Under the pieces are notes generated by a model that did no database searches, was not told the origin of the DNA, and saw only the letters and a program-made list of their open reading frames with translations. Positions 3,601-51,700 of a DNA stretch of 64,000 nucleotides are shown here, piece after piece. The translations under genes and the position numbers were made by a program. How positions within the stretch are numbered: the stretch's first letter is position 1; every line of letters starts with the position of its first letter. Source of the DNA: Owenia fusiformis (taxonomy: Eukaryota); assembly GCA_903813345.2 (NCBI GenBank), contig CAIIXF020000001.1, forward strand, positions 21,142,001-21,206,000, read 5' to 3'.

Positions 3601-6600
3601 TAAATATGAATTTATTCTTTCACTTACTGTTAAATATTTAAGTGATGAAGATCTCTACATTGTACAAAGATACTTGATTAAATTCATTTCAGTATTTTTT
3701 GAATAGAATAGGTTTTCTTCAACGATTTTACTCAAAATGTTTCCGTTTTTGGCTTAAAATGTTCACTACATACTGTGATCCTAACAATATGCATGTGTAA
3801 AGACATACCTTTTATCACATTGGCACTCTCTCTCAGTTGTGGATCTTTGGAGCTGTCCATTGCAAAGAGTGTCTGTAGTAGCTCATAATAGGCCCTCAAA
3901 GCAATGTGCACCCTATTAAATGCAAATAATAATACAAACTATAGGATAAACACATAAGTCAAATCATTTTGTAAATGTGTATTATCGTATTAATGTTTGA
4001 TTTTTTGTTTTGTATTTCCTTCTCTTCCATATCAACACTTGGGTGGACTGACTTTTTCACATCAGCCCTTAGTGCAAATTCATCCTGTGTTTTCATTAAC
4101 CTTTTGCAATTTAATTATAACTATAAATCAATAAATGCAAATGGTTGCCAGGAAGGTTATGAGGAGATCATTAACATCTTGACAATAAAAAGACAACATA
4201 ATTGTTATACATTCACTGTCATATCGTTGTGTAATACTGAAATTGAACATTACCTCCTTGACCAAATTTTTGCATCCTTTTTCTCCATGCTTATCATCTC
4301 AAAGTATGTTGTCAGGTTGGTCTGTACAAAGTGGAAGGCCTGGGAGGACATTGTCTCTCTGTGGAGAAAAATAATCATTTTCAGTATCTCAATGTTTAGT
4401 TCAATATATTTATGTACAATATATACTATGATTTCACAGATACTGTTCCTAAATTTGAAATCAGCAAAATTATTGGTATGCAACAAAACATCCATCTACT
4501 CAATCACTACACCTTAACATATTTTAACATTGGGAACGGGTTATCATTTCATGAAACCTCCCAAAGGGCTGTTTGTAAATCAATGTTGTGTGTAAAACCC
4601 TTAAATAATAATTCCCACTCTTAAAAATAAGTGAAGAGGTTTTTAACATACCCTATGACATCTATCCGGAATTTATAGAGTCTGGAGAACTCCATGAAGA
4701 ACCTCATGGCCCAGAGATAGTACGTCTCATCATTGTCCTGAGTCTTAGAATGGTTGATGTTGTCCTGGAAACATACATATTTTAGCAATCATGTATTAAT
4801 TGGCTATTTGTTTCATGTTTTTTTCTGCAGTATTTTTAGGAGAATGTAATATCTAAAAAGAGTTTTGGATGCTATTTTTAGTTTATGAGTAATCTCGGAA
4901 TGCATCCAATATTAATAAAAAATTGACTCTGTTGTTGAATAACTTCAGCAATACAAAGTAAATGGAAATCAACACATAATAAAAAAAATCAAGAAAATAA
5001 AACTATATTACGTGCCAAGTTACATGTAAATGTCAGGTTTATAAAACAGGGAAAAAAATATAGATACAATGTTGTACCGAGTAACAAGGAAAAGATGTAT
5101 AAAAGTGACATCTGAAGAACTCCACTATTTACAACAATACCTAGAAATCTAATGTACATAGAGTTGGTTACCTTGACAGCATACATCAGAGGATTATAGC
5201 AGTTCTCAAGGAAGTTCACGCAGAAATCTTTCAGAAACATCCGGATGCTAAGCGTCGACCTCCGGGTCAAATCTGCCTCTGTGATTGGTTTACGATTTTT
5301 GCCTCGCTTTTTAGGGCGTTTTTCATGATCAAATGAGATATTGTTGACTTCTCCTAAAGATCGATGGTATATCATGCTGTTCTCAGTGATTGACTGCATA
5401 TTGGAGACAACATATGTACCACCAAATCTCGAGTGCCTGTAATGCAATATACATAATATTTACATGTTTTTTTTATTTTGTAAGACTGTGGTGTGTATGC
5501 CAGAAGGCTGGTATAATATCCCTTTTTGCACAAAATATTACTCTAAAAAGTCTTTTTCAATCTCTTTGAAAAGCATGGTGTCCTATTATTTCTATAGGGT
5601 TTAAGGACTAACAACAAGCTGAACAACATTCGTAATATTGGTCATCTGTGCATCGTTCATTGAAATTGTGTAAATGTAGAATTACTACAATGAAATAATG
5701 AAGGCCTCACCTTGTACTGAATTTCTTCATGTTTGCTTTTTTCTGTGCCCTCTCCTTCTCTCGTACCAGCTCAAGTTCCCTAGAAAAATGTCAGGTTTTT
5801 GAAATCTGCACTTCTTGTATCATTAAAACAAGACAGACCGTAATAAATATTGTATTTGAAGAAGATAACACCAAGTAGATTTAAACACCCAGTCGGATTT
5901 TTGAAAGTACACAAGAGTCATTAGCTCTAAACTTGGACATTATCTTAAAGCTGTAAAAATTAAAATTGAATCCAAGGAGTAGTTTTCCTGGAATCTTAAT
6001 GACAAGATTTTTTTGAAACATTTGATTTTCAAAGGATTTCAAAGAGTTTTTGCTGTGAATTTTTGGGAGAATCTGGAAATTGTAATATAAAATTAAAGGC
6101 AATATTTCATTGTCTAAATTGTATCAGATGCTGGCACAGTTTTGCCGGAAGTTTGGAAGAAGTAACTTTTGGCAATGCAGTATGTTAGAGTAACCTAGTA
6201 GGTGTAAGAAAATATAAGGTGATGGCCTTTAAAGTGGTAAAAACAATTTTCACGGCCGAATTGGACTTCAATTCCTGCGATTTCAGGGGGTACTATGAGA
6301 CTATTTCATAACATAAAGGATATAGTTGTTATTGTTCTGCTTTCTACAGCACACATTACTAGTCCAAAGATGAATAATATCCTAAAGTTATAGCCCGATA
6401 TCTGTATTAGTCTCAGAAATATTGCAATTAATAGGAAAAAATATGCAATTTTAGTCATTTTTAAGTCTCACGTATCTTATATTTGTAGCTTCCAGCAAAA
6501 GATGGCAGCTTAAATAGGTCAAAATTGTTTTCTAAAAACTAATTCAAGCTTTGTTTCATATTGTAATACAATTATAATAATGATAATGTACTTTTTATGA

Positions 6601-9600
6601 TTTTTAATATGACTTTATAGTACCCTACCCCTGGAAAGTGGGTGTGGTCAATGTTATCATTTTGCAGCATACAATTAAAAACTTGTATTGATAGAAAGCA
6701 AATCAATGCATTTTTAACATTTTCACTTGTTACTTGACATTGTAATTCATTTATTACTAAAATATAGGACTCTACATATTTTATATATACGTTTTCAATT
6801 TTGTACAATGTATCATGATGAAATCTAATAGGCTGTTTCATTTTCAGTGTTCACTAACGCATGAAATGTAAGTCACAATGTTTCCAAATTACCTTTGCAA
6901 TGAGAAAGTACCACAAAGACTACATAATATGAGCAGTTTCAAGGTCCTAATACTAATACTTACCAATCTATCGGCGTTCAAAAATAGAGAAAGCTGTCGT
7001 GAGTGCAGTTTTAACTAACTTTGAACTGAAACTGCTGCTTAATGAATATTTTTCTCAACATCTGTGACTTTTTTAGACCCCAAACATAAGATACCAAGAC
7101 ATAATGCTACCAAGTTCTGATATTGGAAGTTTCAGAGCTCTAGATCAAATATTCACTTCTGCATGTACTTTTAAAAAGACCCAAAAGGACAAAAAAACTG
7201 TCAGATATCGTGAAAAATATGAAAGGGATGAAAGATGCACTATTCAGAACAATTTATCTCTTAAATGTTACTTTTATTTGACATAATTTCTGATTCTGCC
7301 TCCAGTTAGTACCACCAATAATACATATGAGAAGACTTAACGTCATAGTAAGTGGAAGTACAGATCTATTGGCTTCTGAAAATGGGAAAAGCTGTAGCAA
7401 GTATGATTTTCACCAGTTTTTCATCTAAGACTGCAACTTTCTGAATTTTCTTTTTACAAACTGCACAGTAAGACCAAAGACATTAAAGGAAACCTGGTCA
7501 TTGTACCACCAATAATAAGTAAAAATAATATTGGTAATATATACCAAGTGTTTACTTTAATTCCAAGGCATCTGAATTGATAAATAAATGAAATCAGTAC
7601 TTTATTGTATCTTGGGACAAAATACACTGTTTGAATGCTTAAACTTGACATCAAAGTATCAAGTGAAAGATACGTTGTTATATACAGCTATATATCACTT
7701 TAACTGACTTTACTCTTCAATTTGAAATATGCCTGGCCATCCTAAGAAAAATGTGACGGAGGGTGCATGGTATAATTGGTAATTAAGCTCTTCTAGAGTT
7801 TAAAGCTCCCACAATTTTTAAAAACGAAATGGAGAATAACATGTGAAAGTATAGGATGGACTTATTGATATTTTCATGAGAGAGCGTGTAACTCCTAGTA
7901 AGCACTTCAAGTTTCAGTTCTAAATAAAATACAGTTTAGTTAAAAAATTGTTAAGAATACATACATTTTTTCACAATCACAATTTCACCATTTCTGACTG
8001 TATTTTGCATATTTCTAGGTGTCAATGGTTCAATGATTATTTGATATAACCTCCTGAAACTACTCTCATATATATTTGGTGGTGCAGTGATATGGAATCC
8101 TGTCGTTTGGGGTCTCACGGAATTCTTGTTTTAGAGAAGAAAATCGAAAGCTGCAGTTTAATATTATGAATTATAGGTGAAAATTGCACTTGCTACACTG
8201 CTTCTCCCATTTTTAGATGCTAATAAATCTGTAACTACACTTACTATGACCTTAAGTCTACTCATATGTATTATTGGTATTACTAACTAGAGGCAGAATC
8301 AGAAATTATGGTAAATAAAAGTAAAATTTAAGAGACAAATTGTTCTGAATAGTGCATTTTATCACATTTTTTCGCGATATCTGACTGCATTTTGTGTCTT
8401 TTGGGTCTTTTTAAGAGTCCATGCAGATATGAATACTTGATCTAGAGCTCTGAAATTTTCAATACCAGAATTTGGTAGCACTATGTCTTGATATCCTGTG
8501 TTTGGACTCTAACCAAATCACAGTTGTTGTGAAAAACATTCATAAGTAGCAGTTTTAATTCAAAATTAGTTGAAACGGCACTCAACACAGCTTTCCTCAT
8601 TTTTGAAAGCCGATAGATCGGCAAGCATTTACACCATGATCTTGAATCTGGGCATACATATTCTAAATGGCACTATCTCATTGCCCAGATATTGTGGAAA
8701 CATTGTGACTTATATTCCATGTGATAGTAAGCACTGAAAATGGACTTGTTGCATTGTGGCGGACCCCATACAAAACAAACATATGGGTAGGGGGGGGGGG
8801 GTTTAAATGTTGATCAGTTCTGCTATTTTTTGTGGCTATTGGTCATATAGTAGATCATTTTGTCAAAAGGTAAGGGTGATCCGAGAAAAAGTTGGTAAAT
8901 TGAAACAGCCTATTAGATTTCATTATGATACATTGTACAAAATTGAAATCGTATATATAAAATATGTAGAGTCCTATATTTTAATAATAAATGAATTACA
9001 TTGTCAAGTAACAAGTGAAGATATTTTATATGCATTGATTTGCTTTCTATCAATACAAGTTTTTAATTGTATGCTGCAAAATGATAACATTGACCACGCC
9101 CACTTTCCAGGGGTAGGGTACTATAAAGTCATATTAAAAATCATAAAAAGTACATTATCATTATTATAATTGTATTACAATATCAAACAAAGCTTGAATT
9201 AGTTTTTAGAAAACAATTTTGAGCTATTTAAGCTGCCATCTTTTGCTGGAAGCTACAAATATAAGATACGTGAGACTTAAAAATGACTAAAATTGCATAT
9301 TTTTTCCTATTAATTGCAATATTTCTGAGACTAATACAGATATCGGCCAATAACTTTAGGAAATTATTCATCTTTGGACTAGTAATGTGTGCTGTAGAAA
9401 GCAGAACAATAGCAACTATATCCTTTATGTTATGAAATAGTCTTATAGTACCCCCTGAAATCGCAGGAATTGAAGTCCAATTCGGCCGTGAAAATTGTTT
9501 TTACCACTTTAAAGGCCATCACCTTATATTTTCTTACACCTACTAGGTTACTCTAACATACTGCATTGCCAAAAGTTACTTCTTGCAAACTTCCGGCAAA

Positions 9601-12600
9601 ACTGTGCCAGCATCTGATACAGCAATAGAATTAACTGTAAATTGCTTAAATTTGACGCTATTTGGTGGATTGGGCTTTTAAAATTTTGACTGCTATTTAC
9701 TTTGGCGGATTGACTTATCAGTAAAATATGGATATATGAGATCTAGATAGGAACTCAAGTGGCCAGTGTACTATTTGGTGATATAGGGAGGTTTTAGCTT
9801 CATATACATGGATGAACAAAACCTTGAACAAAAAATGGGGTTACAATAGTTCCTGCTGAGTAAGGGATGAGTAGTAGAAATTAGAGAAGATCCCATATAC
9901 ACAGAAATTTCAACTTTGCAAACATTAAGGTTTAAAGGGTTCCGATAAGCATCCCGTATAAAAACAATATGGCGGCTCCAGGCGAATCGACTGGATCAGT
10001 CCATTTTTAAGAAATAAGGGGAGTTCTGCAAAATCCAGTTTATTGAAATTGTCTTTGAGATAAAGTATCCGTTTATAATGATTTTGAAAACATTATCCAT
10101 AGAGTGATTGCGTTCAAAGAATATGTACAACAGCCAATATAAATCCTTGTATTAGAACTGCTTTGTTTCATTTGCAGGATATTTCATATACCAAGCTGTG
10201 TGCTATTACGTTATGGGGAAATTTAGATGTCAATTTTTCCTTATTATACACAAATAGAAGATCCTGAAACTTCACCCATAAATGTGGAATTGATTTGTCA
10301 AAATAAAAATCATCGTTTTATAAATATGTGACGATCTATAATATACTTATGCTATATAACAGTTAGAGGTGTTGACACAACGACCTCGAGCCTGTGAACC
10401 CTTGAGTATTATTCCGGGATCGGGCCTTTTATACTAAACGGTGAGCAACACCAGAAACGAGCGTTCGATTTGCTAAACGATATGCGTCACCCTATAACAA
10501 GAACACAAATGTGTACAAAATGTTCCCACCTATATGGGTCATCCCATCAAATGGTTATCCTAAAAATGAGTAGACAAGACTCACCGACACAATTTGAGGA
10601 CGGAAAATCCAAAATGGCCACCTTAAAATTTACCCAGAATGCCGAAAAATTAGTCAGTTCTAGATTTTCATACTAAGAACAACCCTTAAAAATTTGAAGT
10701 TGATCCGTCACACAGTTAACCAGAAAACATGTAAACAAGATTTTACAGACAAGATTTGAGGACAGAAAATCCAAAATGGCTGCCTTGACATTTACCCAGA
10801 ATGCCCATAAACTAATCAGATCTAGATTTTCATACTAAGAATCATCCCTGAAAATTTGTAATTGATCTACCAAACGGTTCACCTAAAAACGTGTAGACAA
10901 GACTTTACAGGCAAGATTTTAAGACGGAAAATCCAAAATGGCTGCCTTGACATTTATCCAGAATGCCAAAAAACTAATCAGATCTTGATTTTCATACTAA
11001 GAATCATCCCTGAAAATTTGAAATTGATCTACCAAACGGTTCACCTAAAAACGCGTAGACAAGACTTTACAGACAAGATTTTAAGATGGAAAATCCAAAA
11101 TGGCTGCCTTGACATTTATCCAGAATGGCAAAAAACTAATCAGATCTAGATTTTCATACTAAGAATCATCCCTGAAAATTTGAAATTGATCTACCAAACG
11201 GTTCACCTAAAAACGCGTAGACAAGACTTTACAGACAAGATTTTAAGATGGAAAATCCAAAATGGCTGCCTTGACATTTATCCAGAATGGCAAAAAACTA
11301 ATCAGATCTAGATTTTCATACTAAGAATCATCCCTGAAAATTTGAAATTGATCTACTTGACGGTTCACCTGAAAATGCGTAGACAAGACTTTACAGACAA
11401 GATTTTAGGACGGAAAATCCAAAATGGCTGCCTTGACATTTACCCAGAATGCCCAAAAACTAATCAGATCTAGATTTTCATACTAAGAATCATCCCTGAA
11501 AACTTGAAATTGATCTACCAAACGGTTCACCTGAAAACGCGTAGACAAGACTTACAGACAAGATTTTAGGATGGAAAAATCCAAAATGGCTGACAATAAA
11601 AAAGTGATTATGAGTTTTTGCTGATTTCATTTTACAAAATTATCACATATACCTACTGTTAACAATAACATAGACTTTTACAAGAAGGTACACCTGAAAT
11701 TATTTATAATGCTACTAAATAGTTCAAGTATGAAAACTCAAAAACACCATTCAATATGATACAAAGTATTATTGCGCGCTAACTTTTCTTCAGACATTTA
11801 AAAATGGCTGCCATGACTGAGCTAACAGGTCCAAAACCTAATCAGATCTAGAATGAAGTGAGCTGAACAAGATGTTAAAGTTTTAAAAGCAACTGTGAAG
11901 CCGTTTTTCTTCAAGTTTGCAGACAAGGATTTTAGCATTTGACTTCAAAATGGCCGACAGGAAGTAGATATCGAATTAAAAATTAAAAATACATCTGTAT
12001 GCACTCATAAGTTATCCCTGAAAATTTGAAGGGGATATCTGTAGCGGTTTTGGAGAAAACTGCCGGACGTACGACAGACGGACAGACAGACATCTTGTAA
12101 TATATAGATACACTGTCCCACATGTTTTGTTAAAGAGCAACTGAAGCATACAATCTTTCCACAAAGATAAATTCAGACCAACATTTGGATATCTACATCA
12201 TGTAGGTAGATTATAATTGATATTATTTATTTGTCATATCCAGTATTTATTTATTATAGGTTTAAACCCATATTAATATTGAAATCATATATTATATTAA
12301 AATCCATTATATATTAATTTTAGGAAATACCCATATTAATATTTAAGTCATGATTGGTAAGACACAGACAGACGGACGCGCCTAGGCCGACAATATGGCC
12401 CCACACTATGTGGTGGGGACATAAAAATAAACTCAGTTCCTGTTGATCTAAGGTAATTAGTTTGGTGTGATTCTCACCCACATCTGTTTCTGGTTTGTTT
12501 GTCATATTAGAATCCACAAAAAAAACAATAAAAACAAATGATTGCATTTTTGTCTAAATATTAAGCTATATGTGTAAACAAATAAACTGTTTAAAATAAC

Positions 12601-15600
12601 TGTTAATACAAACAAAAAGCTAATATTAATGTATATTTAAACTGATAATAAGCCCAATTTTCCAATTAAAGATCAGGTGTCAATCTAGAGTTTCTTCACA
12701 CTGCATACTGTACTTGACGAGGTAGGTACATGTCCATATAGATACATACTGTACATATATTTAAAAAATGTCTATGCAAATATTACATGTTGAATATACA
12801 TTTAATTCGTTTAAGTTTTTATGAAACTTTGACAATTAAGATAAAGCTTTGGGCATAAATATTTGGCTCATTCATTGGAATCAAGAATTTTGGGCTGTTA
12901 GGTCAATAGCTGATTCATTGATTCATTGAAAAATTAATGATTTAGCAATTTAATATTTTATGTTTTTGTTATTGCAGATTCCAGCAAAATCAGCTACAGT
13001 GTATTAACTTGGACATGAAACAACAGTACTTCAACATTAATTGAACAAAGGGAATTTAATGGACATAGGTGAAAAATAGCTCAGCTGACAAAAGTGAAGA
13101 TACATTAGGTAATTGCTGGAATGTTCATCATTACAACAGAGAAATCATAGAATTAGACCTTGATCTACAGTAGTAAACTCTTATAATTAAACAGTTTGAT
13201 GATACACAATTGCAAACTTTACACTGTGTCAAAGAACAATGTTTTTCTGTAACATATCATACATGCTACTGGTTGCAAGTTTCATTGCTGATGTTGCAGA
13301 ATCTCGAGCTCAAGTTCGTCAACAAAATGATGGCTTGGTCAATGACCAAGGGCTCCACAATCCAGAGGGAACATTTGGCTTTTTCGAAAATCAAAATTTA
13401 AATGAGCCTTCAATCCAAAAGACTAATAAGAGGAGCATACCAGAGACAGATGAGAGAACAAGTGAAGCTACGACTACACCATTTGACTATTATACTATTC
13501 CTGCACCTAAATACCTATGTGCAATGGATTTGAATGAGACTGTAGGTCCATCATGTGCTAATAGTTCAGTTAGTTCTATGTCCTATGCATATACATGTGA
13601 ATCACGCTGCAATGATCCTAAGATGACAGCAGGAGCTAATATGGGACCTTATTGCTCCTGTCATCCGTTATGTTTGGTGTCCCATGACTGTTGTCAAGAT
13701 TTTCAACAGTTTTGTCCAGAACATTACAAGATTGGTGAGAGAAAGAGAGATTTATTTGCCAGAACCCCAAACTCTTCAGCTTATGTTGAGTGTATGCATC
13801 CCTTTGTTAAATCGGAAAGAGATCATACATATTGGATGGTTGGACGCTGCCCAAAAGACAATGTCAATCAAACACTGCGTGAAAAATGTGAAGGTGAGGT
13901 TACAGAATTCATACAAATAGTACCAGTTATCTCAAAGATAACTGATGTCACATATAAAAATTACTTCTGTGCCCAATGTAATAACATTCTTGAAGATGTT
14001 ATACCATGGGATCTCAATGTCACATGTGAAGAGGTATGGGAAGGCTCCTTAGAATCACCACAAGAGTTGTTAGATTCAGTGAAAAAAGGAGCATGTCATC
14101 CAAAATAGGACCCTCCAGTTGAACACATATGTGTGAATAGACACCTCTCACAACCTAACTGCATGGCTCAGCCCAATGGATGCCTGCCAAAATATACAGA
14201 CTTGTGTTCTTATGGGTTTCAGATGCCTGTCACCATTTCACTGGTTTCATTTATTCAAATTATTGACAATAATTTCATTTATGGTAATGTGAGAGTCGGT
14301 TAAGGTTTAGGTATGAACAAGCCCTAAGAAGACCATTCCCCGGTTATCCCAGGTAAATGTTTCTGGTAAGTTACACTGAACGAAACATCAAGCTTCAGAT
14401 CTCGAGAGTACGAGATGAGACTTTAGACGAGATATCGATAGGATTGTAGTTGGAGGGTTTTCTCCCTAGGTGCGTACAAAATCCATTAACATCAATGTAA
14501 GTTATACATTTCGATTCTTTTTATCGACATTTATCTCTTGTATATACATTTATCTATCGCTGAATCGTTTTGTGAAAATTTTATCGTAATATTTCACACA
14601 AAAAACGTCAGTTTAAAAAAGTTCAAAAAAATTTCAAACACGTTTTATCTTTTGTCTTTATGACTTTGTAGTTTTATGTTTGAAGTATTCAATTGATATC
14701 TCGTACATATGGTTTAAAACTTGAATTTATACAAAAGAATTAATTTATTGATGAATATGGACACGTCACATATTACTCGAGTCTCTACCTTACAGCTAGA
14801 TGTAACTTCATTTATTTCGTATGTACTCGTATTTCGTATGTAAAAATTGCTACACGCACCTAGAAATCATTTTATATTAATTATATTTAGGATGAAGCGT
14901 TGCTTGTCTGGTTTTAGATATTTCAAAATTTCTTTTCGGAGTTTGACATATGGTTAAATTTTCTCGCTGTAGCTAAAAATGGCTTCCGGTTCCAGACGTC
15001 AATAATGTAGGAAACTTTGAAATTATTCTCGCTTAAAGAAATCAAATATAACAATAGATTCAGACGGAGATGTGTGCTGATGTTTCTCAAATCTATACAT
15101 AAAGATATATTTCATATTATTATGCCGTATTTCCTGTGTGTGTGACACATTGATTTACAATATTTACAACACCAAGGCAGCTAATCTTTCTACTCAAAGC
15201 CGGAATATAGAGAAGGTTTGGACCTAAGTAAGTCACATACATGTCCTCAAGTTACGTTCAATAGACTCCATCCAATCTAATAATAGATATTTCATTTATT
15301 TACGAGTGTAAGTAACCTTGTAGGCTATTAAATAAATATATCTATTCTATTTTATTATCCCATTCCAGAGATTTCTGGTTGTTATTGGGATTATTCATAG
15401 TACCATTAAGGTACAGATATCATTTTATTATTTGATATATATTTATCTCTTGAGAGAGCTATAATTATTCCTTTTCTTCTATATTTCTGACACCTTATTG
15501 CACATAATAAACTTTACTCTGAGGATAAGACAGGAGTCAATAATATCCTTACCTTTCCTCTCCCATTATACAAGACAATTAGAGATGCCTAATGTTATTA

Positions 15601-18600
15601 GGGTCAGCATTATAGGCCACAGTTTTGTTCGGAAAATAGAAAAGTCTAACCATTTTGACTTTAAATTAAAGGAAGACATAGTTAACTATAATACCATCAT
15701 TGTATATACAATTAAACAATTTCAGATGATGTAAAATATAAAAATCCCTATCCAGATATGGCTATATTACAGCTAGGAGAAAATGATCTGGTTCATAGAT
15801 CATCTACCTTTGTTGCAAAAAATCTCATCACTTTGGCTGAACAATATTTAGATATACATCCTTCATTAAAAGCCTTTTATATTGGAGAACTATTTCAACG
15901 CTCATGGCATCCTTTCAAATCCTCGATCAATACTGCTTCAGAAGGCATTCAATATAATTCAATATTTTATCTACCAATTTCAAATTGTTAAATGATATTC
16001 ATCATCATAAGGGCAATAGACTTTTGTTCCTACATCACCCACATACCACCCAATATAGAATCAATGGTCAAATTTGATAGATGACTCCTACGATCCCATA
16101 CATCTCAATGCAAAGGGGAAAAGCGTTTCGTCAAGTCCTTGAAAGGCGCAGTCCTGAGATTTCTTGATTACATTTATTAGGTAATAATAATTAGACTTAA
16201 CATTAGAAGAGACGGCTACTCTTCTCTAACCAAACATAAGCCAGAGAGTCGTTAACTTTTCACAATAGTTTATTCACTTAGTTATCCTTCATAAGTACTA
16301 TACTTATATTAGGAAATTTAGTTTCCTGTTTACTTATATTTTATCATATTTATATTATGATAAATATATATTATTTTGTATATCATCTGCATTTATTCAT
16401 GCAGTGTATACTATACCTTTAGACATGATATGTTATCATATTTATATTATGATAAAATTCATATTATTTTATATTTCATATTCATGCATTGTATGCTTTA
16501 CCTTTATTCTTAAAGGTTATCATATTTATATTATGATAATTCATATTATTTTATATATCATATGCATTTATTCATGCATTGTATACTTTACCTTTATTCT
16601 TAAAGGTTATCATTTTATATTATGATTATTCATTTTTTATATATCATATGCATTTATTTATGCAGTGTATTCTAAATCATATTTATTATGATTAGCCTTA
16701 TGGGCATCATATTTATATTATGATAATTCATAATTTTTATATATCATATGCATTTATTTATGCAGTGTATTCTAAATCATATTTATTATGATTAGCCTTA
16801 TGGGCATCATATTTATATTATGATAATTCATAATCTTTATATATCATTTGCATTTATTTATGCAGTGTATTCTAAATCATATTTATTATGATTAGCCTTA
16901 TGGGCATCATATTTATATACATCTAACATGGAGCATGTGCTTCTATTTATATTTATCTAAATGTTTTTATATCTTGAAGTTGCTTACCCTCTATATAACT
17001 ACTAATTATTTCACTGCAAATGTCTGAAACTGAAGGACCTAACCCAAATATTACTATTGAAGAGTATCACACTTCTAATACCCTGACTGCAGCCAAGTCT
17101 ATGCCCACTTTAATAAGGGGCAACTTTACAACAACTTTTCCCTTATCCCCTTTCCCTTCTTATTCCACTACATCTTCCATTCCAACCCAACATTTCATTC
17201 TCTCTAAATAGACCCACAGCATCTATTACTCGCCCTATTCCATCTTTTGCATCAAGCGCTAATATCCAACCCTACCCTTTCATCCCTCCAGTCTCTACTA
17301 ACCTTTCAGCTTTTCATAATTCCCAACCCGTCTCTACAGCTTATGGATTAATTCCCAACACAAATGCCATGCTACAAGGACAGGTGTCAGTAGCTTCAAT
17401 AAATCCAATTCCCAGTTTTCAACATATTACATTACATTAATTTGTCCATATTTCAGATTTTGCGGATTTACTTTAATTCATTTCTATGATATTCTTATAT
17501 TTTGGTATTCATGTATTGATTCATGATTGTATTGAAGAAGACAAAAACAATGATTATGTCCTCTGTGAGATGTAATCTGACAATTCTTTTGAATCAAAAC
17601 ATTTGAATTTAAACCCTTCAAAGAAGGGAAAATCCTTTCATTTCCAGAATGGGTCCGAGCATTCATTATATTTATTGCTGTCTATACCCAAAGATTTCAT
17701 GATCAAACCCCTCACCTCTTGAAATATATATCCCCTTGTCCCTTTAACCACACCTGCCCAACTTCCAAAATGTTACTCCCGCAACAACGGCAGGCAAGCC
17801 CAATTCCCCAACAAAAAGCGCTCAGGTACTGGAGACTCCAAAAAACCCTTCGAGTGAACTTATGTCAACACAAGTTGTTACTCCAGTTAAACTCTCCAGG
17901 TGAATTCTGTGTTATTCACAACTTATCACATCCCAGAGGCCAACCCATAATGATACTATCCCAGACGAAACTTCTACAGTTAAATATGCAACCGTACAAC
18001 AAGCCATAGATATTATAAAACATTTAGGAAAAGGTTGCTTCTTGTGTAAGACTATTAGAAGCTTGTTTGCTCATGGAAATGGCAAAACAATCATTGACAC
18101 TTTATGTAACATCAACCCCTTTACCATTAAGCCAAAACCAAAGAAAGTCTCAAAGAGAACTTTTATCTGCTATAGGATTCCTTAGCTACTGTTGTTGTGT
18201 GATTCCTTTCGGTAGATCATTTATTTCATTATTTATTCATCTATCTAAAAATGAAGGAGCTACATTATAAAATCTTAATCAACACTCCATCTATGCAGGA
18301 TTTATTAATGTGGAAATAGTTTCTAATTCCCTTTAATGGGAAATCTATTTTCCTTACAGAAGAACAAGAGACAAGAGAACAATTGCATCTTTTACCGATG
18401 CTTCTACTACGATAGGCTATGGAGCCGTTTGCAATAATCTTTGGTTTAAAGGGGAATGGCCATCAGAATGGAAAGAATTGGACATCAATATTCTTGAATT
18501 ATATCCTATTGTTACTGCTATACTTACATAGACAAAACTTATGTCTGGACACACAGTTATCCTGCATTCTGACAATGATGCAGTATTGAACATACCGAAA

Positions 18601-21600
18601 TAAATTTTCTACCAGCAATCAAACGTCCATGCAACTCTTACTTCCCATATATTAAAATGTCTCTTAAACAATATCATGTTCAACGTGAACACATTGCTGG
18701 TATTCTTAATTCTGCTGCTGACGTTTTATCTAGAAACAATTTATGTTACTTTTTATCTTTTTAGAAGCACTTCAAGCTGCCCAAGCCCCGTCTACCAGAA
18801 AGTCATATGATTTATTAGTACAGTTCAACTCCCAGACAGGTATAGGTGAATTTCCTCTAACCCCAGCCTGCTAGCCTTTTTGCAGCACATCTTCGTTTAA
18901 AGAATTATCCCCCTAATTCATTCAAGTCAGTTCTGTCTGGTATATCATTTTTATCATATTTTCACAATTAACAATTTCAAGGATCCCACTACTTCTTATG
19001 TAGTCTCTCAAATAGTTTCTGGTTTTTGTAAACAAATCCTAGCATAGACACTAGATTGCCAATCAACACAGCCTTGTTAGAACAAATGGTTTCTAAAACT
19101 TCTGAAGTAGATTTTTACCCTTTTGCTCAAGTCTTGTACAGAGCTATGTTATCTACAGCCTTTTTTGGCTTACTAAGAAGTAGTGAGTTGACAAGTACTT
19201 CCGCAGGACACAACTTACAGTTAGAAAGTATTAAATTCTCTCCCGATGAAGCCTTTTTCATTATTACTTTTTCACATTTTAAACATAGCTCATCTCCTGC
19301 TACGATATCAATTAATTCTCAATTACCATCTTGTTGTCCAGTATTACATATGAAGTTGTACCTGAACATAAGGTCCTTTAAATCAGGTCCTTTTTCATTT
19401 ATAGAGATGCTCCAGTGAATACTTCTGTATTTAACAATTTTCTTCACAAACTCTTTGTTCAATGTCAGGTAGATCCTACCTTCTATAAATGCCACAGTTT
19501 GCGGATAGGCGGAGCTACATGGGCCACAAATCTTGGACTTGATGACTATACTATCAAAAGATTGGGAGATGACATACATACATACATTAAAAAATATATT
19601 AGGTAGACATTTATAAACTCAGACTGGTGTCGAGTATGCAATTTTCATTAAAGCCCCAAAGTTGCTCAGACAGGTGTCTAGTATTCAATTTTCATGTAAA
19701 CCCCAAAGTCGGCTCAAACAGGTGTCGAGCATGCAAATTTCAAGTAGCTACTGTTTTTTCTTCATGATGTACTAGAAATTTAATTGAGATAACCCGCACT
19801 TTCTGAATTCAAAAATTTTCATTCAATTCTAATTCCTTTATCTTACCTGAGATTGACAGCATATTACATTACATTACATTAATTTGTCCATCCTTATTTC
19901 AGAATTTGCGGATTTACTTTAGTTCATTTCTATGATGTTCTTATAATTTGGTATTCATGTATTGATTTGTGTGTATCAATAAATGATTTAACTACTTTCT
20001 AATTAATCTTCTTTTCTTTTGGGCTCTCGCGAGAGATCGCGCATGGCCTTATTTTCGCCCAAGAAGATGATTTGGAGATGGTATTATAATATATCCAATT
20101 GAGCTAATTAACAGTTATGTCAAATTGTAAACTCTTGTAGCTAATTAACTTAAATTAGCCATTATTTCCAAGGTATTGTGTTTTGTGTTAATTGGCTCAA
20201 TATTTATTTATATTAATTTTATATTAATAATTTTACATGTACGACTCTCACGGCCATATCTATACTCTACATGAACATAAATTCAAATTATTGACAATAA
20301 TTTCATTTATGGTAATGTGAGAGTCGGTTAAGGTTTAGGTATGAACAAGCCCTAAGAAGACCATTCCCCGGTTATCCCAGGTAAATGTTTCTGGTAAGTT
20401 ACACTGAACGAAACATCAAGCTTCAGATCTCGAGAGTACGAGATGAGACTTTAGACGAGATATCGATAGGATTGTAGTTGGAGGGTTTTCTCCCTAGGTG
20501 CGTACAAAATCCATTAACATCAATGTAAGTTATACATTTCGATTCTTTTCCCTCACCTCCTTCCCCAGCTTACACCACCAGTTGGAGATTTATTTTCGCC
20601 CAAGAAGATGATTTGGAGATGGTATTATAATATATCCAATTGAGCTAATTAACAGTTATGTCAAATTGTAAACTCTTGTAGCTAATTAACTTAAATTAGC
20701 CATTATTTCCAAGGTATTGTGTTTTGTGTTAATTGGCTCAATATTTATTTATATTAATTTTATATTAATAATTTTACATGTACGACTCTCACGGCCATAT
20801 CTATACTCTACATGAACATAAAAGAATGTTTACTGTTTAATGTGTGCCGTACAAGATGGGTTCCTATTGGATACTATTTCATGTGATTTTGTTTGGAATG
20901 AATTTAATAATGTGGAAGTACCTGGTTGGGGACTTGCAAAATTTTCTTTCGGAATTCTAGTTGATTATAATCCTTCAGCTGGAAACAAGGTGGGATTCAT
21001 ATTTAAGGATAACATAAAAACATTTGGATGTGGCCTGACTAATTCAGAAAATTTGGACTGTGTTTCATACTGTGCAGACGGATTTCAATACACGAATGGG
21101 GAATGTGTCTTAAAATACCATGCTTTTGATATGACATTAACTGGTAGGTGGACAACACAAGAGTTTGGGATGATAAGTAACACAAAAATATGGCAAAGCT
21201 TAAAGAAAGCATTATTAGAACTATTCCTTGAGGTACTGGAGCAATGCATCATTGAGGAGATAAAACTGGAACCTAGTTTCAATAACTCATCTTCAATATA
21301 TGGATTTATCCAGTTTGATGTAACCGGCAAATACAAATTAAAAGTAGGAAACATGGTGCCATTAGATGAAATTCATGCAAAATTATTCAATAATATTCTC
21401 ACAGAATCAAATTCTGCTAGTCCTAAAAGAACAAATGTTTTAATTGACCTTAATAAGACATGTCTAAGTTTATTTGGTGAAAGGTCATGTTGGAACCATG
21501 GACGTGTAACAAAATCGGGAGAAAATATTGTAACTGAACGAAATGAAAAAACACTAATATTCAACCCAAGCAAAACCAACCAGTCAGCAATTGCAACATC

Positions 21601-24600
21601 AATTCCTCTTAAGCCATACAACACTACAGATTGTCCACGCAAACTTGTACGTCCTAATTCTGTTAAGATACTAGCCAATGAGAGTGTACTTTCCATTGAC
21701 ACTGGGAATCTACTTTCAGAAGATGAATTTATATTGGTCGGGAATATGGTATATGTTTGTGTGAATGAGACTGGAGAGTTTGCTAATTGGACTGCAGTCT
21801 GGCGGTATGATGACACGATGGGGTTATTAACAATCATTTGTACCACACTGTCTCTTGTCTGTATGTTCATTAGACTCATTCTCCAACCCTTTGTTTCACT
21901 GTTTCAAAACTTCCCTGGAAAATTACAGTTTTTATTTATCTTGTCACTATTTCTTGCAAGTTTATTATTTCTGATCAGGCCAAATTGTACTGATATAAAA
22001 TACTTATGTGTCACACTAGGAGTTTTAATCCACTGGAGTTATCTGGCAGTTTTTACATGGACAGTGATCATAGCAAGAGATATGTTCTATATATTTTCTC
22101 CCTCTAGTTTTGCTAAATCAACTGACACAAATGTTTCAGTCCTGAAACTGTATGCACTTCTAGCATGGGGTATTCCAGCTGTCATAGTGGCAATATCTTT
22201 AGGTCTTGATTTTTCCAATATAGACCCTGTCTTTAAACCAATGTATGGCAGGGAAATTTGCTGGATATCACAAAGATATCCTCTCTTGATATTTTTCACC
22301 ACCCCTATAGCCATTGCAATTCTGGTCAATATGGGGTTCTTCATACCAACAGCCATTAGCCTTTGGAAATCAATGAAACAACGAGTTCAAAGTTGCAACC
22401 AGACTTCAGAATATCCTTTTGGAATTTATGTCAAGTTATTCTGTCTTACGGGTCTCACATGGATCTTTGCATTCATAGCCCCATACAACATAGCTTTATG
22501 GTATATCTTTATAGTGTTAAATGCAAGTCAAGGGGTGTATATATTCATAGCTTTTGTTTTAAAGAGAAAAGTGTGGGACAGTCTCACTTTCTCAAAAGAT
22601 TCCAAGAAATCAAAGGCAAAAACGAGTTCATCCCATTTATCAACATCATCGATGTAGAACATAACAGAACAGAGAAGAAGCAATGTCTAATGAAAAGAGG
22701 GAATATAAAAATAAGGCTGCATGAACAAAGACAATTCACATGATTATGTAAAATTAGATTTGAATGAGGAAATGACAAATGCAATAGAAAAAAAGGTGGC
22801 AAAAATGTGAATGGTGATGCAGAAATGAAAATGACATAAAAATGTGATATGACACAAAGGTGATAGAAAAGTAAAAGGTTTACAAATAAAAGTGAAATAA
22901 AAAGTAAAAATTTTAAATCTGATTTTTTTTCTTCTGGAAACAATTTAAATGCAGGCGCCATTTTGAGAATTCTTTCTTGAACAAATATTCCATGTCCTTA
23001 GGCATCAGTATATATTTTATCGAATCAAATCAGACAACTGGTATTTGAGTTATCAAAGATCACATTTTTCATGAAAAAGGGTTGCCATTTTGAATTAAGC
23101 AGCCATATCGTGAGTCCTATTCCAATAAGAGTGAGCCTATAAAATTTGGGCAAAATGGGATCCTTGAGTTATTACATCTATTTATGAAAAAATGGAAGCC
23201 ATTTTGAAATGAGCGGTAATTTTGAAAAATACTTCCTGAACAAAGGTCCTATGATCCCAATCATCAGCATATAAATTTTGAACCAAATCAGTCCACTGGT
23301 ACTTTAAAGTTGTCAAAGATTTAATTTTTTATGAAAAAATTTCAAGGTCCGATAAAAAATTATTAAATGTAACTTATTTGCAAGGACACAATCTCCAAGC
23401 AATGCAGAGAAATTACTTACCTCTCATCCCTCTCTTTCTCAGTGAGGGACCTGGAAGAGCCAGCATTGGCCAGCTGCTCTGGGGTCTGCTCTTTGAACAT
23501 CAGGGACACAATCTCCAAGCAGTGCATTGCAAACTGCCTCTCCTCCTGGGAACTTGCTATATACAAGAGCAGATCTTCCATTCCACTCACATGTAAAGCC
23601 CTGCATAAAGAATAATACATGAACAGCGAATGTGGCTTAATAATATAGTACAAGAGCATTATCCTTTTTTGCTTGCTTTTTGCCATATTTTATAACTTGA
23701 TATACAATATTTAATGTAATTTTATTGATGTTAAAAAATTACACACATTTTAAATGTTTAATACATATTTTGTGGAGATTTGTCAAAGTTAGAGGCATTT
23801 TAGTGTGAAATTCTGTCACTGATATATCTTACTATCTGGGTATTCAAGCAGTTAAACAAAGTTGAGAGAGAATGAAATATCAGGGAAGAATACATATGAT
23901 ACTTTGCAAATATACCTTAACAGAAGAAATTGTGAGACAAAAAGTTGAAACTACTAGATAACCCAAGGATTTACCTTTCATCAGAGTGCAATTGAAAATG
24001 CTTACAAAAATTGACATACCAACGTATTTAAAAGTATGGTACATACCATAAGACTTGATCATGTATACTTGCATCATCGTCTGTTCTCTGGAAAAAAATG
24101 TAAACAAACATATAGTCATTTAATTTTCAATATTTCTAACTATATATTGCCACGTCAACACCTCAAGTTTATAATATTCCTGCTTACTCTTGTATTTCTA
24201 CATTCTAAGTAAAAATTGTCATTTTATAGCTTTGATACACCTTCAAACTTTAAAGCGGAAATAATGTCAGGTATTCTAATCATCATTAGATGTAGTTACA
24301 ATACTACTGAATAAAATGCAATAAGTTGAAAATCTTGTTATGTGTTAGTTTTTGTATAATATTGAAAATAAAAATCATAAATTGACCCAGTGACCCAGTT
24401 GTCTGTTGGACGGGGCTCCCCATATTTCCCTCAGAGACCCGGATGTAGACCGGAAGTGTGACGTTTCTGCGACCTGAGTCGCCATCTTGAAAGCATTCAC
24501 AACAAAGGAAAATGCCTATGTGTTGTGCGGTAATCTGTTCAAATATTTCCACTGATAGAGCTAGACTTGGGATAAGGACTTTAAAAGAAATGCTTGAACG

Positions 24601-48716: not shown

Positions 48717-51700
48717 TCATCCAAAGAACTTAAATCCTGCAGGACGATATGCCTTTTTCTTAGGTTTATATCTTCGTTCATCATCAGGCATTCCAAAGTA
48801 ATATCTCCTGTTTATGTCTTCATTGTTAATGGCATTAAACCGTGTGGGTCTAGTGTAAACTGTAGTTTCCTTGAATTCCCCTCCCTCCTCATTTAGCTCA
48901 TTATAATAGTCATCTATAGGCACTGACTTTTCTGCTGTAGGTACAACACCCTTTAGAATACTTATCTCCTGGAGTTCTACCACATCTTCAATGTTGTTAT
49001 TGTCTGTTGACTCTTTGGTTGGCGTAGTAGTACCAGTGATATCCATTGATACAGTGTTTTTATCCTCCGTAGTCAAAGCAGTACTCTTTTTGAGCAGTGA
49101 CTTAATAGCTTTTGCAAACTGTCTATTTTTAGTTGTAGTGCTGTCAGTCTCAATTTTGACAGTGTCTTTGGTTGTAACAATTGTCGTATCTGGTATATCT
49201 GTGGCAGTTAAAGTTGTAGGTGCCATCACAAAGTACTCTTCTGCAGCCGCAGGTATGAATGGCTTCATTGTTTGTTTTGTGGTTGTCATGGTGACACTGT
49301 TTGTTGGCTTTGATGTTGTTGTCATGTGAACAAAGTTTTCAGTGGCTGCTTCTACAGCTGGAAAGAAATATCAAGAGAATAATTGGTCTGATAGAAGGCA
49401 TCTATTTTGCATGTTTTGTGAAACATACTGCCAATACATGATTTGTATAAACAATTACATTATTTGATATATAAAGATAACTAAAGAAGAAAATATATTT
49501 CTCTGAAAAATCTCAAGTACATTATACATGAGGATCAGTTCTCTCATTTGAATACCACATTTCCTAATATCAAACAGGTGAAAATATTCACTCTTTCAAA
49601 AGATATCTGTGAAGGAACAAACTAAGTGTGAAAGTCAATAAAATTATATTTACTGCAAAGAGCAGAGGCCTCATCTTTTCCATTGTCACAATCTGCATAG
49701 CCATCACATGTCATACATTGTTTAGGGCTACATGGGAAATAAAGGTCATTAGACCCACTACATGGTGAGGTGTTGCCTTCCAAAGCATCATCTGCAAAAA
49801 CATGCATATGATTATAATATCTATGATTCACTGATGGGTTTGTGGTTACAATACAAACTGACATCACACAATTCAATCAATTCTCAATACCCTACTTTTT
49901 AACAGCTCTGTTTCAGTGTCTTGTTTCAAAAGTAAATGTCACCACCTGCCTTTTGTTACAGACAGCAATGGCCAGGCGCTGACTGATCCTGCCGAACACC
50001 ATCCACAAAAAAAAAGTGATATTAAAAAAATGGAATATTCAAAAGTGTCTTTTTAACAGAATTCGAAGATTCAAGATTCCAGATTTCTAATCCAAAAGAA
50101 ATCTCGTCTAATTCTAATAAAAAGGATGAATGGATGGATGGATGAAAGCACGGACAGACAGAAAGATTTATGGGGGAGCAATTCCATAGGCTAACATTGT
50201 AAGACATGACCTTACCTTTTGGTGCTTTTTTACATGTGTGTTTATCTGAAGTAAGGGTCTGGCCTTGGGGGCAAATGCAGAGATACTGTTGACTTCCAAG
50301 GCTCCAGATGCATTGGAAAGCACAGCCACCATTATTCTTCTTACATTCATTTTGAATATCTACAATAATAAGTAAGTATGTCATACATATTCTTCCCAAT
50401 TGAAAGGTTGACACTGAACGTTAGAATATGTACATGTATTTCCAAAATAAAAAAAAGTCTACTTACACTGAAAGTCTAGATTCTTTTGTTGTATCCTAAA
50501 TGGACCTAGCATTCCCTCAGTCTTTTTGAGATAGTGCTCTATCACAAAGGTAGGTTTACTAAGTAAGTGACCCTCATCTTTTGGCTTAGTGAAAAAGAGT
50601 GTATAGTCCACTACTATACTTCCTTCAGTGAAGTCTGTCACCAATACCTTCTTAAAGCTCTCAATATCTTTAAATGCAGCAGTCAGCTGGAAATTAGCAA
50701 ACCATAATATGAGATAACATCAAGATTCACAAACTTCCATGGCAGTGTCTCGGGATAGATACTGCAGCAGGAAAATTGAAAAACATCCAATATAGAGTGA
50801 AAATAGTCCGCTTTTTCACCACAGACATGTTTAATTAAATTACGACACAGTATATGTATTCTATTACTTTGCTCATAGCTATCAATCATTATCTTGTCAG
50901 AATATTTCAATATTTCAAAAATCATGAAACATTAGAAGAAATCTCACAGAAGAAACATATGTTGTTATCTTCAGTCAAATAGATTAATATTAATGAGATG
51001 TCCACTCACTAGAAGCTGCATCTTTGCCTTGAGAGCCCTGTAGATGGTGGAGTTTGAATTACCCAACTGAGCAGTGTATTGATGGCTTATAATATGGACT
51101 CTACCTTTCACTGCATTGTACACTGAAATAAAACAAATAAACACACATTCATTTTTTACAAGAAATTATCAGATTACATGGGTTTTCATATACATGTACA
51201 TGTTTTTTTAATGACATATGCTAGAGAAACAGCAACTCCCAAGAGAAGCATATATCACTGAACAAAATATATTTCATCAATATCTTAGTGGAATCTACAT
51301 TAATAATGTGACATGAAACCGGATAATAAAGAGCGAGGGAAAGTATCGCAACAGATTTTTGACAGTAAATAATTTTTTTCTAGTAGTTTCTGGCTGTACA
51401 AAAATGAATGCATATGAAAGGCCAATGTATAATCTTTAAGAAAAATTCAAAGAATGGTTTCAAGATCAATTGGATTATCTCATAAGCCATGTTTAATCCA
51501 CCCATCAACAAGCTTTTTTTCAAAATACAATCGTCATTTTCACCATCGTCCCTCATTTTTTTTTACAATTTTCATGCAAAGTTACATTGTACTTGAACAA
51601 ATGTTTCATCACTTAAAATATATAAGGAACTCCTCGTGGATTAGGATTATGATAATCCAATATAAGGGGATCCAATGGGGCTATGCTTTTAGTACAGCAC

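Follow-up and report, generated by a model that had tools for sequence, protein, structure and literature searches.

A transcribed class-B receptor gene nested antisense in a timeless intron of Owenia fusiformis, with an assembled null allele interrupted by a putative Ngaro-type element

Class-B G protein-coupled receptors (GPCRs) bearing a somatomedin-B (SMB) domain have been described, in the openly available parts of the sources, as NvX in Nematostella and PARF1 in Schmidtea, both homologous to the Methuselah (Mth) receptors (PMC3261222), and also in amphioxus (PMC2246102). Members of the Mth and Methuselah-like (Mthl) family in Nematostella, Branchiostoma and Saccoglossus likewise have SMB, and the family shows lineage expansions, including one in Capitella (PMC4768249, available text). 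The gene considered here is a further member of this known but unstudied type. It lies in a 64,000-nt stretch of Owenia fusiformis DNA (hereafter the window; contig CAIIXF020000001.1, positions 21,142,001 to 21,206,000), antisense within an intron of timeless, and its assembled copy is interrupted by what appears to be a tyrosine-recombinase (YR) retrotransposon of the Ngaro type. A comparable nesting is known in Drosophila, where 2mit, a leucine-rich-repeat single-pass protein, is encoded in intron 11 of tim2, is conserved across the Drosophilidae and has no functional link to tim2 according to the available text (PMC3786989). In Drosophila 71% of nested genes are antisense, which the accessible part of the source attributes to selection against mis-splicing (PMC3814207). 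Split direct repeats in the order A1...B1-A2-B2 are given as the Ngaro/PAT layout in the portion available of PMC9210276.

We consider it very probable that a live, transcribed orphan class-B GPCR gene resides in the timeless intron and that the assembled chromosome carries a recent null allele of it, with a TAG codon and the inserted element as the lesions. The features of the host intron and of the receptor gene are as follows.

5711..5779, minus strand: timeless (timeout/TIM ortholog) exon 3' of the host intron, AG/GT ends
5780..23419, minus strand: host intron, 17,640 nt, limits from the exon ends
12677..12721, plus strand: probable 45-nt exon of the 5' untranslated region (5' UTR), AG before and GT after, with RNA cover; splicing presumed
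12978..13238, plus strand: untranslated portion of the coding exon (5' UTR), following an acceptor site that is conserved in the C2 and C4 copies
13239..14252, plus strand: 5' half of the receptor coding sequence (hydrophobic N-terminus, Thr-rich spacer, SMB, first Cys-rich module, start of the second)
14106..14108, plus strand: premature TAG; TAC/TAT in the paralogs, TAC in other alleles
20822..22657, plus strand: 3' half of the receptor coding sequence, the sole part present as a public protein (605 aa)
22655..22845, plus strand: stop codon reached early owing to a 4-nt deletion, followed by what is left of the ancestral C-tail, frameshifted; from paralog alignment
23420..23600, minus strand: timeless exon 5' of the host intron, PF04821 match, AG/G-GT ends

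Rejoined, the coding sequence comprises 949 codons in one frame (338 codons from 13239-14252, and 611 codons plus the stop from 20822-22657) with a single internal stop, the TAG at 14106-14108; an earlier note on this DNA, made from the letters alone, had predicted an in-frame fusion of about this length with one stop, and the reconstruction agrees. That note had let its reading depend on homologs continuing across 14252/20822, and paralogs on C2, C4 and C11 do align across the junction without a break, the closest two at 80-83% DNA identity. Since all three run unbroken through it, the 5' and 3' halves belong to one gene. The public annotation holds only the last 605 aa of this gene, a C-terminal model that the reconstruction corrects. 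Relative to the paralogs there is an in-frame 6-nt deletion near 14237, and a third lesion, the 4-nt deletion near 22655, makes the protein about 60 residues shorter at its end than the paralogs; downstream of that early stop the paralog alignment reveals two further frameshifts in the dead tail. The signal peptide was called by eye from the hydrophobic N-terminus.

The gene had been described as intronless, which holds for the coding region and not for the 5' UTR, where a 45-nt exon and an acceptor at 12977 were recognized. RNA depth is 9.4 on one strand in the bin 12648-12728 and 0 in the neighbouring bins. A collinear but weak counterpart of the exon lies upstream of the C2 paralog (E 0.076), and 12940-13209 matches that paralog at 71% identity (E 1e-24). 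The spliced joint of the exon is absent among the joints listed, and the 5'-UTR introns are proposed from exon and acceptor.

The antisense position inside timeless was confirmed, the intron being bounded by minus-strand host exons. The exon at 5175-5438 matches human TIMELESS 275-361 (E 2e-23), all three hits of this one-exon test being named 'timeless homolog', and the host is therefore of the timeout/TIM (tim2) type. Seventeen minus-strand timeless exons were mapped by eye, several limits being off by 1-3 nt. The receptor occupies the seventh intron mapped, which at 17,640 nt compares with 133-2,952 nt for the other 15 mapped introns in the window. The result says nothing new on timeless or clocks.

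The inserted element is made up of the following parts.

14254..20822, plus strand: Ngaro-type YR retrotransposon as judged from its layout, decayed non-autonomous copy, no target-site duplication
14254..14521, plus strand: split direct repeat A1, 268 nt, identical to A2
17900..19650, plus strand: remnants of broken reverse transcriptase (RT)/RNase H and YR frames, with limits that are approximate; loci L084/L086 are about 90% identical to this part in DNA
20050..20281, plus strand: split direct repeat B1, 232 nt, identical to B2
20282..20549, plus strand: split direct repeat A2
20591..20822, plus strand: split direct repeat B2

Its limits may equally be written 14253-20821 or 14254-20822, as one A fits either side. 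No target-site duplication is present, as the earlier note had observed, and none was seen in any of 19 copies, comprising the window copy and 18 other full copies fetched from 20 candidates scored of 565. The label of YR retrotransposon is likewise upheld by the split direct repeats, which share the Ngaro arrangement with each pair identical, and by the RT and YR frames of relatives. The L084/L086 frames match RVT_1 (E 7e-14) and have weak matches to integrase families (E 0.003-0.05). In the relatives at about 90% DNA identity the RNase H ends about 30 aa before the frame end and the YR frame overlaps, leaving no room for a methyltransferase, an order of RT/RNase H then YR that fits the definition of Ngaro-like elements in the available part of PMC9210276. 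The window copy itself has no frame >138 aa, and 15 of its frames, with stops read as X, gave no relevant Pfam match.

The sibling copies differ from the window copy by 0.8-1.8%, and the 19 copies are 0.2-2.2% apart. A1 equals A2 in 19/19 and B1 equals B2 in 18/19 copies; a base private to the window copy is present in both its A repeats, which together with the identity of the pair indicates that A1 and A2 were templated together and have not changed since. Such identical pairs in a very young Ngaro subfamily fit the split-repeat replication model. The left flank ends in A in all 19 copies, as does the B1-A2 joint, consistent with recombination at a one-base core. None of the 19 copies has a frame >189 aa and yet they are so little diverged, which suggests that the subfamily spreads non-autonomously, a difference from Ngaro-like elements as described. 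From its sequence the insertion is accordingly classed as a young non-autonomous Ngaro-type subfamily. Several details of the element were also noted. Its 5' part has SGNH-hydrolase-like motifs by eye at 15600-15790 (plus strand), with no Pfam match. Amphibian Ngaro elements carry SGNH after YR. Near 17890 the window copy lacks about 250-330 nt found in most sibling elements; AT-rich tandem units of 85-100 nt occupy 16320-16930, and 17420-17521 and 19857-19967 form a 94% internal duplication.

The assembled copy is a null allele. Transcription of the locus and the state of other alleles were read from four of 24 listed runs, aligned on window 12000-14400 at a 92% likeness cut, above the roughly 80% likeness of the paralogs in this region; no run holding this stretch was indexed as RNA, and the RNA evidence consists of aligned raw reads. 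In RNA run X20, 13296-14267 is covered at a depth of 17-39 on one strand and 0-3 on the opposite one, equivalent to about 16 FPKM (fragments per kilobase per million), with no cover in most of the flanking intron, and by the usual library convention the covered strand is that of the receptor. At 14108 the RNA reads have C, giving TAC, in 37/37 cases with 23 different starts, the cleanest reads having no other differences. The contigs of runs X2 and X5 also read C here. The X1 contig keeps G, so the TAG is not an assembly error. In each of X1, X2 and X5 the alignment of one contig breaks off at 14253, leaving exactly 23 letters unaligned, and none of these enters the element among the rows listed. 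A 32-nt run from 14247 is common to the window gene and the C4 paralog L030; should an empty site run on into this shared stretch, 23 left-over letters are what a 31-mer graph is expected to give, and the other alleles probably continue past 14253 as empty sites. The locus is highly polymorphic, other alleles having 18 and 14 extra nt at window 13468 and 13215.

Selection was assessed on the branch of the window gene, where dN/dS (non-synonymous to synonymous rate ratio) is 0.36 overall, 0.13 in the seven-transmembrane (7TM) domain and 0.47 in the ectodomain, the sisters having 0.24 and 0.27 overall. All 38 cysteines common to the three paralogs are kept (38/38). Frameshifts occur solely at and after 22655, with a chance of about 0.002 if the whole frame were free, which argues for an earlier loss of the tail, with constraint persisting over the remainder of the gene. 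The proposal of a recently inactivated allele was thus strengthened by these constraints and by the transcribed TAC allele on other chromosomes. The null allele would have arisen by a nonsense codon and by an element that recombined in without target-site duplication, and intact alleles probably segregate and are expressed. A laboratory annelid thereby provides a naturally occurring null allele of an orphan receptor that is expressed.

Some points weigh against this reading. The strand assignment rests on the library convention; X1 may be the source sample and so not independent; and the empty site is deduced from the number of letters left over at 14253, in alignments that covered the 5' half. 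The structural matches of the ectodomain given further below are middling for SEA (Z 7.3) and weak for Methuselah (Z 3.2). The ectodomain dN/dS of 0.47 is above that of the sisters (0.23, 0.32), and this, with the shortened tail, means that the gene may already be decaying, the tail lesion being one seen in the assembled copy. Taken further, these last observations would make the gene a dying duplicate, transcribed but unneeded, with the TAG and the element as the latest of several lesions. We regard this as unlikely. It would account for the raised ectodomain dN/dS, the longest 7TM branch of the triplet to which the gene belongs, the truncated tail and the very existence of a null allele, and the paralog C9_21.0 has an internal stop too; it is at odds with the low 7TM ratio, the complete set of conserved cysteines, the restriction of frameshifts to the tail and the TAC in every RNA read. 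The paralog in question (L036:3837-6680, minus strand, at C9:21.0 Mb) has its in-frame stop just after TM1 and is nested in a GH31 gene.

A live gene with a recent null allele being the preferred reading, the route by which it reached the intron was considered. Ahead of the splice acceptor, non-coding sequence is common to the window, C2 and C4 copies, and between C2 and C4 collinear blocks extend to -2.2 kb. Together with the 45-nt exon and its stranded RNA this favours copying at the DNA level over retroposition. Spread by retroposed mRNA would explain the single coding exon and the dispersal, as 26 loci are scattered, the coding region is one frame in the 20 fetched and active RT-bearing elements exist in the genome; a processed copy would, however, lack the shared upstream sequence and blocks, and we judge this route quite improbable. 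A gene of the SMB / DUF8401 / (SEA) / 7tm_2 family would therefore have entered the timeless intron as a DNA-level copy with its own 5'-UTR introns, as one of a young Owenia triplet. It may have persisted there because a gene lying antisense adds none of its splice and 3'-end signals to the transcript of its host; by the explanation offered for Drosophila in the accessible part of PMC3814207, same-strand copies with their own splice signals would disturb the host, and the same may apply in Owenia. A very abundant repeat of 162-bp tandem units with GACA/GACG microsatellite ends lies upstream (window 10650-12100 and 12360-12430) and is also found near paralogs L047 (93%) and L037. A shared mobile-element carrier, which this repeat had suggested, was dropped owing to the extreme abundance of the repeat.

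The 7TM search of the genome gave 29 matches at 26 loci of single-coding-exon SMB/7tm_2 receptors, and each of the 20 loci fetched is one long frame. In a tree of 45 rows (26 from Owenia, 19 others, one row without 7TM dropped, no insect Mth included), the window gene and its C2 and C4 copies form a young triplet within a nine-gene Owenia clade (support 100/99). Opposite-strand host exons bracket 8/9 clade genes, equal to 7/8 loci, all antisense, in seven unrelated hosts: timeless, a BEACH gene (two copies), AlaRS, cullin, GH31, FANCL and HDAC. The remaining gene, C11_30.4, had no bracketing host in the frames scanned, where a zinc-finger exon on the opposite strand was the sole find. Outside the clade, host exons bracket 3/10 of the loci examined, in each case on the same strand (GH59, ALDH and what is probably a mosaic protease), and for 7/10 no bracketing host was found, follow-ups of SSF and sulfotransferase being negative. 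Two of these loci, L046 (C5:33.9 Mb) and L047 (C9:13.5 Mb), are a close paralog pair in different hosts (GH59 and ALDH), both same-strand. Six of the 26 family loci fell outside the host examination, and the scans took part of the candidate frames (118/262, 129/397, 150/258, 150/184, 150/194); a tRNA_SAD search missed the C4 AlaRS exons, which tblastn with the C3 paralog found.

Of five control windows at round positions, two had a bracketed centre, about 26 of 100 kb lying between same-family exons, and the excess of nesting in the clade is not significant (p 0.22). For orientation, 7/7 antisense has p 0.008 at even odds and 0.09 at the Drosophila rate of 71%, and clade against outside p 0.008. 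The nesting statistics are soft, since the clade windows are larger (30 kb vs 24 and 20) and detection is partial. The literature searched, mostly openly readable papers, held no genome-wide intron fraction and no paper on this receptor family in Owenia.

These hosts also bear on whether timeless/tim2 introns recruit membrane-protein genes for co-regulation, as the earlier parallel with 2mit might imply. The parallel stands insofar as both are antisense membrane-protein genes in a large or the largest tim2-type intron (PMC3786989, available part). It does not extend further: 2mit is unrelated and, in the same available text, free of functional ties to tim2; the Owenia gene is a young 7TM copy, and its sisters sit in six other hosts, so nothing singles out timeless as a favoured host. 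Functional nesting is thus very hard to credit. The clade-wide antisense placement is a curious pattern that deserves follow-up together with the domain map, and the eight independent loci could serve as replicates in studies of the origin of nested genes and of their reversed orientation. A wider proposal, possible though doubtful, is that a copying route or retention rule puts each DNA-level duplicate of the clade antisense in a different housekeeping-gene intron (7/7 hosts, with distant paralogs 3/3 same-strand), dispersal being by intron-hopping, and that the membrane-proximal module of the receptor is a pre-arthropod precursor of a Methuselah ectodomain subdomain. Single-frame rhodopsin-type GPCRs were also seen near two paralogs, one near the C4 copy (L093:2054-3421, minus strand), antisense between AlaRS exons, and two near the C2 copy (L095:3097-4827 and 7174-9309, minus strand).

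The domains of the receptor were placed as follows.

13593..13721, plus strand: SMB domain, PF01033, E 9.2e-7
21110..21500, plus strand: SEA-like domain of ferredoxin fold, placed by reference to the C2 paralog model
21632..21765, plus strand: membrane-proximal beta module with two cysteines, which in the model of paralog L032 has a weak likeness to a subdomain of the Methuselah ectodomain
21818..22543, plus strand: class-B 7TM domain (7tm_2), PF00002, E 2.8e-21

Pfam bears out the SMB and 7TM calls made from the letters, and also the absence of GPS/GAIN before TM1, finding neither in the window halves, 17 paralogs and 29 homologs; a GPS-type motif C-x-C-x-H-[LM]-[TS] was not found in 20 paralog frames. 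SMB was detected in 15/17 paralogs at E <= 0.1 and 7tm_2 in 17/17. Homologs occur in crustaceans, molluscs, Lingula and amphioxus, most with PF28443 (DUF8401), and the ectodomain profile drew 2,686 clusters at E <= 1e-10, of which some match through SMB only. Three homologs (P0035, P0036 and P0039) have two or three SMB matches and repeated ectodomain modules, indicating that the cassette can be multiplied. The family had been called poorly described. Its architecture is in fact published, in NvX, PARF1 and those Mth/Mthl homologs that have SMB, and the Cys-rich module corresponds to Pfam DUF8401; what the literature searched did not provide is a function.

In the C2 paralog ectodomain model (pLDDT, a model confidence score, 76), SMB is accompanied by two Cys-rich modules and a ferredoxin-fold domain; a small beta module lies close to the membrane, and there is no GAIN. 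The ferredoxin domain (model residues 342-481, beta-alpha-beta-beta-alpha-beta) aligns with MUC16 SEA5 (Z 7.3, root-mean-square deviation (rmsd) 3.6, 105 aligned), TMPRSS6 (Z 6.5) and GPR126 (Z 6.4, VIA). With ribosomal S6 tied at Z 6.8, the matches establish the ferredoxin-like fold and make membership of the SEA family probable. GPR126 is the Foldseek top row for this domain (E 0.011), Foldseek giving no match at E <= 0.001 with either model, and the domain is missing from several paralogs. The SEA self-cleavage motif is of the GS-V-V type, and none was found in 20 paralog frames. For the membrane-proximal module, present in 71/182 proteins compared, the top of 48,161 chains is 1fjr (Z 3.2, rmsd 2.1, 45 residues), with an SH3 permutant tied at Z 3.0; the likeness to Methuselah, which we had presumed before the structural search, is offered as a lead only, from a predicted model. 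A PDB sequence search with the ectodomain profile returned SMB domains only.

Compared with NvX and PARF1, the window receptor has the same single SMB domain on a class-B 7TM and the Methuselah homology, the likeness being one of architecture, whereas SEA-like and DUF8401 modules are unmentioned for them in the available text (PMC3261222). With non-arthropod Mth/Mthl proteins it shares 7tm_2, the lack of GPS and, in some members, SMB (PMC4768249, available text), and a krill homolog is named Mth2 by UniRef; the ectodomain of the window family is, however, much longer, and no Methuselah_N match was found in 17 paralogs or 29 homologs. Adhesion GPCRs with SEA, such as GPR126/ADGRG6, have a class-B 7TM, a long modular ectodomain and a SEA-like fold in common with the window family, but the latter lacks GAIN/GPS and the SEA cleavage motif. 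Judging from this architecture, the receptor is most likely Methuselah-like, a disulfide-rich ectodomain on a SEA stalk that would bind an extracellular protein or peptide and activate the 7TM directly, with neither GAIN self-cleavage nor a tethered agonist predicted. With this domain map, consisting of SMB, two modules of DUF8401 type, an optional SEA and a Methuselah-like module, a large family of receptors that is still unstudied becomes easier to test. Elsewhere in the window, exons of a neighbouring gene at 48717-50420 (minus strand) encode an EGF-like (FXa_inhibition) domain and a Thr-rich stretch.

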